NCBI GenBank assembly: GCA_016699955.1 | Contig: CP064993.1 | Coordinates: 960,001 to 992,000, forward strand | Source of the DNA: Candidatus Saccharimonadota bacterium | GTDB lineage: Bacteria > Patescibacteriota > Saccharimonadia > Saccharimonadales > UBA4665 | Length of the DNA stretch: 32,000 nt | Direction of reading: 5' to 3' | Part shown: positions 21,410-30,465 of the stretch, one piece after another | Layout: every line of letters starts with the position of its first letter | Numbering within the stretch: position 1 is the first letter of the stretch | The notes under the pieces: generated by a model | Databases searched by the model: none | What the model was told of the DNA's origin: nothing | What the model saw: the letters and a program-made list of their open reading frames with translations, nothing else | Made by a program: the position numbers and the translations under genes

Positions 21410-21492
21410 GTACGGATCATCTCCTTTCAGGACGGTGACACACTGCTTAGTTTTATAATGGTATTGAACTTTCGAAGGATTGATCCGTACAT
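21408..21492 (-). promoter_or_regulatory. long-range 12-bp stem covering the rpmJ SD-to-start spacer and the AU of its AUG
   Basis: Perfect inverted repeat atgtacggatca (21408-21419) / tgatccgtacat (21481-21492), separated by 61 nt. Confidence 0.4.
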
Positions 21493-21554
21493 CGGTCTAA
21501 TAAATTAGGCCAGTCCGGATGAACCAATCCCTAGAAAGTTCAACAGTAGCAAAA

Positions 21555-23361: not shown

Positions 23362-23607
23362 TTTGCTCTTCCTCTTTATCTGCTAAATCTGCTACCAGTA
23401 TACATAGTCCTGCCCCAGAATAAAATAAGAAGCGTTCATTTTAAGCGCTTCCTATCGATAGTCATTGAATTTACCCTCTCGATCCACTGTTAGCGCCTAT
23501 AGGCGTTAGGCGAGCCTGAGCGAAGCCTACAGGGGCGCAGCTTTAGAGCTAAGGCGTTAATGCCTAAGTTTAGGTAACGAACGTGGGGACTAAGCTAAAG
23601 TAGAATA

Positions 23608-25721: not shown

Positions 25722-25814
25722 TGTGATTTAGAGTTAAGAACTATTCAAGTGATGAGTTAAGAGTATTTAGTGCTCTTTTCTCGTTTCTCTTGTTCTTAGC
25801 TCTCCTTTCCTTGT

Positions 25815-26216
25815 TTAATAAACTTGACAGATTAATTCGCCGCCAAGCCCTACAGCTTTGGCTTCCTCACCGGTCATTAAGCCTTTTGAGGTCGAAATGA
25901 TGAGTATACCGCGGCCACGTTTGACGCGAGGCATTTCACGAGCGTTAGTGTAGGCACGTCGACCGGGCTTGCTCAGACGCTTGATCTCAGTGATGCGCGC
26001 GTTTTCACCGGCAAGGTTTATCGTGATGTGCAGCTGTTTGCCAACACTGAGGTCGGTAACGCTCACGTCTTGCAGAAAACCATTATTCTTTAAAGAAATG
26101 GCGACGTTTTCCTTTATTTTGCTGTGTGGCAGGCTAACTTCATTTTTGCCAACTGCTACTGCGTTTCGTACGCGTGTCAGCATGTCTGAAATTGGATCGG
26201 TTGTAGTGGTGCTCAT
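25815..26216 (-). CDS. rpsH: 30S ribosomal protein S8
   Basis: 133 aa. DPISDMLTRVRNA. Confidence 0.95.
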   Translation of the reverse strand: MSTTTTDPISDMLTRVRNAVAVGKNEVSLPHSKIKENVAISLKNNGFLQDVSVTDLSVGKQLHITINLAGENARITEIKRLSKPGRRAYTNAREMPRVKRGRGILIISTSKGLMTGEEAKAVGLGGELICQVY

Positions 26217-26299
26217 ACAGTGCCTCCTTTCTCATTTGGCAGAGAGCATTGGGTATATGACAGAGATGTAACAGGTTTCATTTGAAGCGAAGTACCCAT
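26213..26299 (-). CDS. candidate 28-codon spacer-filling micro-ORF ([28 protein letters not shown])
   Basis: Its ATG shares the A of the rpsN stop (TAATG, 26301-26297). The frame stays open across the whole 82-nt spacer. Its TGA overlaps the rpsH ATG (ATGA, 26216-26213). Confidence 0.35.
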   Translation of the reverse strand: MGTSLQMKPVTSLSYTQCSLPNEKGGTV

Positions 26300-26568
26300 T
26301 ACCAGCTCGCTTTCGTTACGCCAGGGATTTCACCCTTGCTGGCATGTTCACGGAAAGACAAACGGCTCAGGCCAAACTGGCGCATGAAGGCACGCGGCCT
26401 GCCGGTTTCTATACAACGGTTCTTTTTTCGGGTAGGTGAAGAGTTGCGTGGCAGCTTTGCCAAACCTTCGTAATCACCAAGTTCTTTCAGCTCTTTACGC
26501 TTTACAGCGTACTGCTCGATCATCTTAATGCGCTTTTTGTCGCGCGCTAGATTTGATTTTCTGGCCAT
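26299..26568 (-). CDS. rpsN: 30S ribosomal protein S14 (long, non-zinc form)
   Basis: 89 aa from [13 protein letters not shown], with SD AAAGGAAC. The track ORF adds 12 in-frame codons from an upstream ATG (26604), which I consider less likely. Confidence 0.9.
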
Positions 26569-26674
26569 TATGCAGTTCCTTTCAGCCGCTGAGTCATGCA
26601 GCATGAGTCATAAATCTTGACAGTCACTTTGCGACCGGTAGCTAGTTCTTGTCTCTTGTTTCTTGCCTGTTGTC

Positions 26675-27277
26675 TCATTTTGAATTCTCCTTTTCAAACG
26701 GCATACCAAATTTCTGTAGTAGCGCTTTGCTATGGGCTTTATCTTTGCACTTCACCACAAAAACCGCTTGCATGCCGTGTGTCGTGGTTGTTTCTTCAAA
26801 AGTTAGTTCAGGGAAAACGCTTTGGTCAGTTAAGCCCAGGCTGAAGTTTCCTTGCTTGTCAAATGCCTTGTTGCTTACACCATGAAAGTCGCGCAGACGC
26901 GGCAACACAATGTTAATGAGCCTATCCATAAACTCGTACATCCGCTCGCCGCGAAGTGTCAGTTTGAGGCCAATCATATTGCCTTCGCGCAGTTTAAACC
27001 CAGCGATTGAGTTTTTTGCAACTGTTTCCACTGGTTCTTGTCCGGTGACTTTGCGAAGCGTATTCTTGGCAGCCTCAATTGTTTTTTTGTCATCCTTGGC
27101 TTTACCAAGTCCGACATTGACCACAATTTTTTCAAGTTTAGGAACTTGGTGAGAGTTCACTAGCCCAAGTTCTTTCTGAAGCTCGGCGGCAAATTTCGTG
27201 TTATAGTCATTTTTTAAACGTGCAACGTATTTTGCAGCAGTTTTTGCCGGTTTTTTCGTTATTGTTGCTTCTGCCAT
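26675..27277 (-). CDS. rplE: 50S ribosomal protein L5
   Basis: 200 aa. PKLEKIVVNVGLG and the L5 core. Confidence 0.95.
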   Translation of the reverse strand: MAEATITKKPAKTAAKYVARLKNDYNTKFAAELQKELGLVNSHQVPKLEKIVVNVGLGKAKDDKKTIEAAKNTLRKVTGQEPVETVAKNSIAGFKLREGNMIGLKLTLRGERMYEFMDRLINIVLPRLRDFHGVSNKAFDKQGNFSLGLTDQSVFPELTFEETTTTHGMQAVFVVKCKDKAHSKALLQKFGMPFEKENSK

Positions 27278-28052: not shown

Positions 28053-28370
28053 CTATTTTTCCTCGCCTTTCACACTTGCAGGCTTGTCAGTCACGCCAGG
28101 TACTTGAACGGCAGTTTCGATGTGCTTGACTTCAGCCTTTTCGACAATTGACTGCAAGGTAAAATGTTTGCGACGGCTAATTGGTCGTGTCTCGACCACT
28201 ACAACCGTATCTCCCACTTGTGCTTCGTTGTTTTCATCGTGTGCCATAAATTTCTTGCTTGTTGTGTACTGCTTCCGGTACAAGGGGTGAGTTTTTTTCT
28301 CACGTACCGTAATAACGATTGTTTTGTCGGTTTTGTTGCTGGAGACAACACCGGTAATTGACTTTGGCAT
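28053..28370 (-). CDS. rpsQ: 30S ribosomal protein S17
   Basis: 105 aa. [17 protein letters not shown]...[11 protein letters not shown]. Confidence 0.95.
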
Positions 28371-28471
28371 TATTTGCTACCTCCGGCTTTTGTAGTAGGT
28401 ACTACGTAGTAATTAGTAAGGGATTTTGGAAGCCCAACCATGCTACATGCTACCTGTTGCATGCTAATCAT
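28370..28471 (-). CDS. candidate 33-codon spacer-filling micro-ORF (MISMQQVACSMVGLPKSLTNYYVVPTTKAGGSK)
   Basis: Its ATG directly abuts the rpmC TAA (TAAATG), with AAGGAGG 8 nt upstream. The frame fills the 101-nt spacer. Its TAA shares an A with the rpsQ ATG (TAATG). Confidence 0.4.
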   Translation of the reverse strand: MISMQQVACSMVGLPKSLTNYYVVPTTKAGGSK

Positions 28472-28672
28472 TTACTTGGCCTCCTTCACTAGGTTATCGC
28501 TTAAAACTGTCAGCATACGGGCTAGGTCTTTACGCTTATTGCGTACGGCTCGAACATTTTGGTTGTCACCCATGTATATGTGGCGGCGAAGTTCGGCTAT
28601 TTCTTCCTTCAGCTTAGTAGTCTCTTTGGTTAGCTCAGCGGTGCTTAGCTTGCGAATATCGGCAATTGTCAT
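28472..28672 (-). CDS. rpmC: 50S ribosomal protein L29
   Basis: 66 aa from the ATG at 28672 (MTIADIRKLSTAEL...), 1 nt after the rplP stop, with AAGGAGGG upstream. The track ORF starts 3 codons earlier at a GTG. Confidence 0.9.
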   Translation of the reverse strand: MTIADIRKLSTAELTKETTKLKEEIAELRRHIYMGDNQNVRAVRNKRKDLARMLTVLSDNLVKEAK

Positions 28673-30127: not shown

Positions 30128-30400
30128 TTATTTCCCCTTCGCTAACTTACCGCCGTGGTTGCGGAACTTACGAGTGGGGCTGAACTCGCCCAGCTTGTGG
30201 CCGACCATGTTTTCGGTAACGAAAACCGGTACATGAACTTTGCCGTTGTGCACCGCAAAAGTTTTGCCCACAAAATCTGGCGCAATTGTGCAAGCACGAG
30301 CCCATGTTTTGATAATTGTGCGATCCTCGGGGCCAAGCGCAGCGACTTTTTTCGCCAGCTTCGGATCAATAAACGGCCCTTTCTTAAGTGAACGACTCAT
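30128..30400 (-). CDS. rpsS: 30S ribosomal protein S19
   Basis: 90 aa. [12 protein letters not shown]...HNGK. Confidence 0.95.
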
Positions 30401-30465
30401 TAATTAACTCCTCTTGCTGCTATTATTCCGCCTATGGCACCCCATACAATTCCTGTTGCCATCAT
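30400..30465 (-). CDS. candidate 21-codon spacer-filling hydrophobic micro-ORF ([21 protein letters not shown])
   Basis: Its ATG is 2 nt after the rplB TAA, with AGAGGAAA upstream. The frame fills the 67-nt spacer. Its TAA shares an A with the rpsS ATG (TAATG). Confidence 0.4.

Follow-up and report, generated by a model that had tools for sequence, protein, structure and literature searches.

Introduction

Mycobacterial interspersed repetitive units (MIRUs; Supply et al., 1997) are 40–100 bp repeats found between the genes of operons, with filled and empty sites, internal inverted repeats, and open reading frame (ORF) ends that overlap the adjacent genes (PMC12548453; PMC3184786). This ORF overlap has been read, in a 2025 review, as enabling insertion at a start codon with minimal effect on expression (PMC12548453). 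Rickettsia palindromic elements (RPEs; Ogata et al., 2000, and others) are translated selfish repeats lying in frame within genes (PMC3184786), and the short delivery ORFs of bicistronic designs couple translation to the next start codon (PMC12548453). The locus compared with these systems here is part of the S10/spc ribosomal protein operon of a Saccharibacteria (TM7) genome, contained in a 32,000-nt stretch of contig CP064993.1 (assembly GCA_016699955.1) that is referred to throughout as the window. The spacer between the rpmC and rpsQ genes of this operon is probably a partly decayed element of ~100 nt, belonging to a repeat family designated A, and the small ORF that fills it, coupled to the genes on both sides, would act as a translation relay across the insertion. 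Family A is one of many families of small hairpin inserts found at stop/start junctions of ribosomal operons in some Saccharibacteria.

Materials and Methods

Loci centered on rpsQ were collected from species-representative genomes and metagenomes of Saccharibacteria (n = 106), with about 20 kb around rpsQ sampled per genome. Relatives are labeled L001, L002, and so on, and the window WIN. Seventeen operon genes were placed in each locus by tblastn, and each junction was then measured. A first survey considered spacers of 50–260 nt and counted as bridging any ORF starting between −7 and +11 nt from the upstream stop codon and ending on the downstream start codon. For a cleaned set, junction inserts of 50–200 nt were used, metagenome loci were added, and frameshifted coding sequences posing as spacers in L022, L028, and L029 were excluded; independent sequence clusters were defined by blastn. 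Null expectations were taken from a full dinucleotide shuffle and from a shuffle in which the junction ends were kept.

Ribosomal proteins of L001, L003, and L081 are 82–89% identical to those of the window. WIN, L001, and L002 are roughly equidistant (88.7–90.1% identity over 2,022 concatenated ribosomal protein columns), and in the outgroup L081 (about 87% identity) nearly all junctions are empty. Exact-sequence look-ups of the peptide encoded in the rpmC-rpsQ spacer and of the window S17, L14, and L16 proteins returned no records, so there are no strain-level relatives for a population analysis.

Results

The rpmC-rpsQ spacer is a recent insertion

The operon lies on the minus strand of the window, running from rplD through rplO to secY, and its gene junctions mostly overlap or are 0–3 nt long. 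Between rpmC (ribosomal protein L29, 66 codons; 28472–28672, minus strand) and rpsQ (ribosomal protein S17, 105 codons; 28053–28370, minus strand) the spacer is 101 nt. It is spanned by a micro-ORF of 33 codons plus stop (28370–28471, minus strand), with the translation MISMQQVACSMVGLPKSLTNYYVVPTTKAGGSK. The micro-ORF ATG (28471–28469) directly adjoins the rpmC stop codon, TAA at 28474–28472 (distance 0), and the final rpmC codons encode AAGGAGG (28486–28480) 8 nt 5′ of that ATG, a sequence predicted to serve as the Shine-Dalgarno (SD) sequence of the micro-ORF. At the other end, the micro-ORF TAA (28372–28370) overlaps the rpsQ ATG (28370–28368) through the shared A28370 (distance −1). An SD borne by the element itself, GGAGG (28380–28384, minus strand), lies 9 nt 5′ of the rpsQ ATG and is found at the equivalent position in all three family A copies. 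Within the element lie two hairpin arms, the 5′ one of GGTAGCA-type heptads (28439–28455, minus strand), partly decayed in the window copy, and the 3′ one of TACTAC(A/C)-type heptads (28397–28413, minus strand), in which several pairs are broken. A preliminary description of the window, made from its letters, had drawn attention to the TAAATG junction, the AAGGAGG 8 nt upstream, the 33 open codons, and the terminal TAATG, and had taken the final micro-ORF codons to be the rpsQ SD; each of these minus-strand details was rechecked and is correct.

The L29 and S17 genes are normally contiguous, as the same description supposed. The rpmC-rpsQ gap is ≤4 nt in 97 of 102 Saccharibacteria loci, and inserts are present in five of the 102. 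Over the operon as a whole, 715 of 797 junctions are ≤30 nt, and inserts of 50–200 nt are confined to 22 loci, the junction differing by genome. The L29-S17 site is filled in WIN and in L002, where the insert is 100 nt, and empty in L001, L003, and L081, whose rpmC-rpsQ junctions are 1 nt or overlapping; the empty junction reads AAGGAGGCCAAATAAnATG. Because the site is filled in some relatives and empty in others, the spacer is a recent insertion, polymorphic between relatives, rather than an ancestral feature. A comparison of this junction in related genomes had been proposed as a check, and it gives an insert in few loci, with family A shared with L002.

Repeat families and their architecture

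The rpmC-rpsQ spacer belongs to a repeat family. Family A consists of three copies of 100–101 nt in two genomes, at rpmC-rpsQ in the window and at rpmC-rpsQ and rplX-rplE (L24-L5) in L002; the window insert is 69% identical to the former L002 copy and 75% identical to the latter. Families B to E have 3–10 copies each, and these sister families include copies 96–100% identical at different junctions of a single genome. Family B is found at rplE-rpsN in the window and as a trio in L002, 96–99% identical, at rplW-rplB, rplE-rpsN, and rpsE-rplO. Family C occupies two junctions of L001 (rplV-rpsC and rpsN-rpsH) and three of L002 (rplC-rplD, rpsC-rplP, and rpsN-rpsH); the rplC-rplD and rpsN-rpsH copies of L002 are within the 96–100% range. 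Family D has three such copies in L008, and both D and E recur in other genomes. All copies are at co-directional ribosomal operon junctions, and the blastn matches to genuine elements are all on the gene strand. What the preliminary description called an expanded spacer is a repeat insertion, with the relay features built in and then maintained.

A common architecture is recognizable, in which a 5′ arm of tandem heptamers (GGTAGCA, GAGACAA, or GAGATAA) is followed by a short loop and a roughly complementary 3′ heptamer arm; at the 3′ end of the element comes an SD, then 5–7 nt, then TAATG. For family A, the consensus corresponds to an interrupted hairpin of 14 bp, and folding of the copies in L001 and L002 gives z-scores between −1 and −6.5. 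The bridged copies in the window have lost the hairpin (z about 0), with the ORF kept in all four, and the whole window rpmC-rpsQ region folds no better than its shuffles (z = −0.7). Searches against Rfam gave no gathering-threshold match to the inserts in the window or in eight related loci, and none at E ≤ 1 across the operon; only tRNAs were found.

Family D has a core of 71–75 nt, GGAAAAGAGCAG...GATGAGAAAAACCGTNAGGTTTGTCTCAT, with two hairpins; several pairs of the first have changed in a compensatory manner, and the second is invariant. Over 33–37 nt this core is 97–100% identical between genomes whose S17 is only 66–90% identical to that of the window. Core copies were mapped in L001 (19944–20018), L007 (5939–6012), L008 (1568–1641 and 2307–2381), L014 (1937–2011), L031 (3219–3290, 6351–6422, and 7739–7809), and L085 (7622–7696). 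The core has no Rfam match and none in the viral scans, and it is a candidate for a new structured RNA or mobile element.

Bridging ORFs in the window and in other Saccharibacteria

Three other inserts in the window operon carry bridging micro-ORFs, all on the minus strand. That of the 67-nt rplB-rpsS insert, a singleton sequence, has 21 codons (30400–30465), starting 2 nt past the rplB TAA and overlapping the rpsS start with its stop as TAATG. The 106-nt rplE-rpsN insert, of family B, has a 36-codon ORF (26568–26678) whose start shares ATGA with the rplE stop and whose own stop shares TAATG with the rpsN start. The 82-nt rpsN-rpsH insert, a family C copy with an in-frame internal deletion of 81 nt relative to the L001 and L002 copies, has one of 28 codons (26213–26299). 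The preliminary description had reported the same architecture at 30400–30465 and 26213–26299, and both sites are real; the one at 26568–26678 was not listed there. Bridging is exact in four of the five long spacers of the operon. The sole exception is the 93-nt rpsH-rplF insert (25722–25814, minus strand), a decayed heptad-repeat hairpin (GAGATAA type in L001) without a bridging ORF.

Over the Saccharibacteria loci, 50 of 63 spacers in the first survey were bridged, against 3.7 expected from the full dinucleotide shuffle and 9.6 when junction ends were kept. In the cleaned set the count was 43 of 58 inserts, or 25 of 34 independent clusters, where the shuffle expectation is 6–15%. Seven further copies, outside the 16 junctions surveyed, were all bridged; they lie at rplC-rplD (twice), rplQ-rplM, rpsM-rpsK, rpsK-rpsD, rpoA-rplQ, and rpmJ-rpsM. 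Frames fully open across the spacer were found in the sense direction in 58 of 189 cases, vs. 23 of 189 in antisense. An SD-like motif precedes the downstream start in 53 of the 58 inserts. Among the 43 that are bridged, 38 have a micro-ORF start within −4 to +2 nt of the stop of the preceding gene, and in 41 the micro-ORF ends within −4 to +1 nt of the start of the next gene. The argument in the preliminary description that such exact placement is not expected by chance stands for the class, which far exceeds chance in both surveys (50/63 and 43/58); for the single rpmC-rpsQ ORF taken alone it is not compelling.

The unbridged inserts cluster at rpsH-rplF. This junction is natively 5–30 nt with its own SD, and so does not rely on stop/start overlap. 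Overall, there is no support for stronger hairpins having been kept in the unbridged inserts, fold strength being equal on average (median z −1.9 for unbridged and −1.7 for bridged inserts).

Bridging is also found in 20 of 23 larger inserts. Larger inserts of 165–370 nt have one ORF each, of 57–122 codons, coupled at both ends. They are located at rplB-rpsS in L005, L007, L011, L084, L088, L092, L097, L100, L106, and L124, and at rplE-rpsN, rpsC-rplP, and rpsH-rplF in other loci. Their predicted products are acidic (isoelectric point 4.1–5.4), with no detectable similarity to one another and no Pfam hit. They may represent small proteins that evolve fast or, alternatively, long versions of a translated relay. 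With their single ORFs, these inserts seem to obey the same relay rule as the smaller ones.

The reading frame is conserved and the peptide is not

Differences between family A copies, by codon position, number 8/12/12, 6/9/10, and 5/8/6, and in family B 9/7/3. Within families, DNA identity is 69–81% vs. 45–58% for the peptides. Together, the absence of a third-position excess and the low peptide identity rule out a conserved protein. The frame itself is conserved. Internal indels in families A and C are of 3, 12, and 81 nt, all multiples of three. The lead that separates ATG and core in family D measures 14, 17, 20, or 23 nt; three copies have a 1-nt deletion in the core, all of which have a tail 1 nt longer, and all nine complete copies end on the downstream start codon. 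In the alignment of family A, the second heptamer has CA(A/G/T) in the three copies at the point where TAG would be in frame, from which we infer avoidance of the stop through frame maintenance.

A HMMER search with the 33-residue peptide against 1.84 billion representative proteins gave three weak hits, all translated tandem repeats, and no true homolog. By tblastn against all loci it matches the L002 repeat copies only, and the peptides at equivalent junctions of other genomes are unrelated to it. Of the two readings offered in the preliminary description, an unannotated micro-protein is contradicted by the substitution pattern, the low peptide identity, and the missing homologs. The other, a relay in which the spacer would be translated, gains comparative support from a frame and coupled ends that are kept across unrelated families, indels in multiples of three, and compensated deletions. 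The proposed checks on frame and codon bias were likewise divided in outcome, since the frame and coupled ends are kept and substitutions show no third-position excess.

Ends of the inserts

Similarity between the 5′ and 3′ junctions of the 43 bridged inserts averages 10.3 of 21 matches, vs. 10.0 in controls (p = 0.77). As the ends are no more alike than in controls, the 3′ SD and TAATG belong to the repeat in four families (A, B, C, and E). The repetition between the two edges of family A is limited to ATG or (T)AATG, which leaves the insertion point ambiguous by 3–5 nt. Duplications of about 20–21 nt, covering the SD-stop-start junction, are found in family D and in one of the inserts with an acidic ORF product; the duplication is 20/21 identical in L008 at L29-S17 and in L094 at L5-S14.

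Other spacers of the operon

At rpsH-rplF the hairpin insert, of GAGATAA type in L001, is unbridged both there and in the window, with z-scores between −3.3 and −6.5. A single sequence resembles an SD, AAGGAAAGGAG, and it is immediately 5′ of the hairpin; the rplF ATG is 9–11 nt past the hairpin without an adjoining SD. Through this hairpin the SD and the rplF start codon may be brought into proximity, forming a split ribosome-binding site. In the S8-L6 inserts of L002, L081, L106, L114, and L124 there is instead a normal SD after the hairpin.

In the spacer between infA and rpmJ (roughly 140 nt; window about 21461–21541, minus strand), a long near-perfect inverted repeat, TTGAACTTTCTAGGGATTGGTTCATCCGGAC...GTACGGATCAATCCTTCGAAAGTTCAA, recognized by eye only, fills most of the sequence. 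The rplO-secY spacer (23362–23607, minus strand; 246 nt) has several short GC-rich inverted repeats and no bridging ORF, and may hold a terminator and promoter that set secY apart from the spc genes. GTG is the first codon of the listed secY ORF, although the gene may in fact start elsewhere. At rpsE-rplO (window 24075) the genes overlap directly (−1) with no rpmD (L30) between them, as in most of the Saccharibacteria loci. L30 has been reported as absent from Candidate Phyla Radiation genomes, and the missing rpmD is consistent with this. Between 25600 and 30600 no promoter-like sites were found on either strand, and no terminator-like sites on the operon strand.

Discussion

A proposed relay across the insertion

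In the mechanism proposed here, the 5′ edge of an element would place an ATG on or beside the upstream stop codon, making use of an SD in the final codons of the upstream gene. A ribosome terminating at the rpmC TAA would then re-initiate on the adjoining micro-ORF ATG, aided by AAGGAGG. With a stop-free frame running through both hairpin arms, it could read 33 codons, melting any hairpin on the way, and terminate on top of the rpsQ ATG, where re-initiation would be backed by the GGAGG of the element. The element's 3′ SD and TAATG would recreate the native stop/start overlap for the downstream gene, so that the insert restores in two steps the coupling that an empty junction gives in one. The peptide would be a by-product. 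Such a relay would make the insertion translationally transparent in an operon otherwise dependent on tight coupling. Coupling appears to be the selected function; some other property, such as protection from polarity or from nucleases, is an alternative.

Several points weigh against this account. Translation and re-initiation are read from a sequence pattern. Family copies are not independent of each other, and part of the enrichment could come from an ORF already present in founder elements, without ongoing selection at the level of the host. Bridged and unbridged inserts fold equally well on average. In a neutral-drift simulation of the window's three family copies, a weak test, the chance of no internal stop was 0.41, 0.42, and 0.47, or 0.08 jointly. 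Family A is known from only three copies in two genomes; an exact pattern of 22 bases from its 5′ arm had no match in the metagenome collection, nor did one of 19 bases in viral contigs. Of 20 window ORFs scanned, none codes for a transposase, and the 43 bridged inserts lack a consistent target-site duplication, so mobility, and with it the mode of movement, is argued from the distribution of copies.

Alternative explanations

That the insert acts mainly as an RNA element, with a hairpin for mRNA processing, stability, or regulation and a frame that is simply tolerated or inherited, seems unlikely. It would account for the long imperfect hairpins of the L001 and L002 copies (z down to −6.5), for the covarying two-hairpin core of family D, 97–100% conserved between distant genomes, and for the strong hairpins kept by the unbridged S8-L6 inserts. 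However, the family A copy in the window has lost most of its hairpin pairs (z −0.3 to −0.7) and kept its ORF, no insert has an Rfam match in the searches described above, and indels in multiples of three with compensated frameshifts are not expected from selection on RNA structure alone. A role for RNA structure is in any case compatible with a relay and does not exclude it. Still less probable is that the coupled ends are a mechanical by-product of duplication of an SD-stop-start target at insertion, with the frame unselected. The 20–21 nt junction duplications of family D and of the one acidic-ORF insert are what this would produce, but the ends of the 43 bridged inserts are no more alike than controls, the 3′ SD and TAATG belong to the repeat itself in four families, and a stop-free interior and compensated frame are left unexplained.

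A chance open frame in a neutral spacer, its coincidences picked post hoc, is very improbable. The prior for 33 open codons is roughly 0.2, and the drift simulation on the window copies is only weakly significant; for the class as a whole it is nevertheless refuted by the bridging counts (four of the five window inserts, 43 of 58 copies, 25 of 34 clusters, and all seven additional copies, where 6–15% is expected), and neither the sense/antisense asymmetry of open frames nor the frame-preserving length variation fits it. Least credible of all is a functional, unannotated micro-protein of the ribosomal operon. The canonical ATG, SD, and clean stop, the location in a highly expressed operon, and the resemblance of the L2-S19 peptide to a small hydrophobic helix are in its favor. 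It is opposed by the codon-position counts and the disparity between peptide and DNA identity, by the lack of the insert in 97 of 102 related genomes, by the unrelated peptides at equivalent junctions elsewhere, and by the database searches, which returned translated tandem repeats and the L002 copies and no homologs. A partly decayed family A element with a frame acting as a relay is left as the probable explanation.

Implications

Few bacterial gene arrays are as conserved as the S10/spc operon, and its repeated invasion shows what tight coupling tolerates: inserts appear to be accepted only if translation can run through them between the stop codon on one side and the start codon on the other. 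It is about an even bet that Saccharibacteria harbor an undescribed and diverse set of hairpin/heptad elements specialized for the stop/start junctions of essential operons, each a relay cassette of ATG, stop-free frame, and SD with TAATG, in which the host retains the frame while the hairpin decays. If this is true, translation by termination and re-initiation would be near-obligatory across the ribosomal operons of these reduced genomes. With dozens of independent families, it becomes possible to tell a selected frame apart from a selected peptide or RNA structure. For annotation, ORFs of 20–55 codons in such spacers, which gene callers misjudge, are best treated as candidate translated frames and not as conserved small proteins. 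The combination of ATG on a stop, open frame, and SD with TAATG would also be a natural bicistronic coupler usable in operon engineering.

Comparison with known systems

Literature searches on Patescibacteria, Candidate Phyla Radiation bacteria, and Saccharibacteria yielded no description of similar elements. Like a delivery ORF, the micro-ORF would have as its sole role to bring a terminating ribosome to the next start codon and to unwind local structure. It differs in being repeat-borne and in being itself fed by re-initiation upstream, which would make a two-step relay. RPEs are similar in that small palindromic repeats survive in expressed regions by means of an open frame, but an RPE becomes part of a host protein, whereas the element here is a separate cistron linked by stop/start overlap.

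Miniature inverted-repeat transposable elements (MITEs) and the repetitive extragenic palindromes (REPs) associated with RAYT transposases share with these inserts the character of short, non-autonomous hairpin repeats with many copies and insertion polymorphism (PMC3184786; PMC3733652). The GTAG/CTAC motifs in the arms of family A recall GTAG-tagged REPs, a resemblance only. In contrast to both groups, most of the families here have no target-site duplication, and no transposase or RAYT is present in the window; the strict sense orientation and conserved frame are also atypical of MITEs and REPs. Membership among the MITEs was considered in view of the hairpin arms and was rejected on the lack of a consistent target-site duplication and of a transposase among the 20 window ORFs.

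MIRUs offer the nearest precedent. Both they and the inserts here are dispersed short repeats between operon genes, in the orientation of those genes, with filled and empty sites among relatives, internal inverted repeats, and a small ORF that overlaps the preceding stop codon with its start and the following start codon with its stop. The inserts here differ in their host, Saccharibacteria within the Patescibacteria, in being AT-richer, and in comprising many unrelated families where MIRUs have three classes. Their hairpin arms are made of tandem heptamers, they carry their own SD and TAATG, and they show neither tandem arrays of whole units (variable-number tandem repeats) nor consistent tetranucleotide direct repeats. 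Within the sample of about 20 kb around rpsQ per genome, they are concentrated in the S10/spc/alpha ribosomal operons. The likeness drawn here is one of architecture, and on this basis the Saccharibacteria inserts may be regarded as MIRU-like in function without being filed as MIRUs, extending to the Candidate Phyla Radiation a principle that has so far been essentially mycobacterial.

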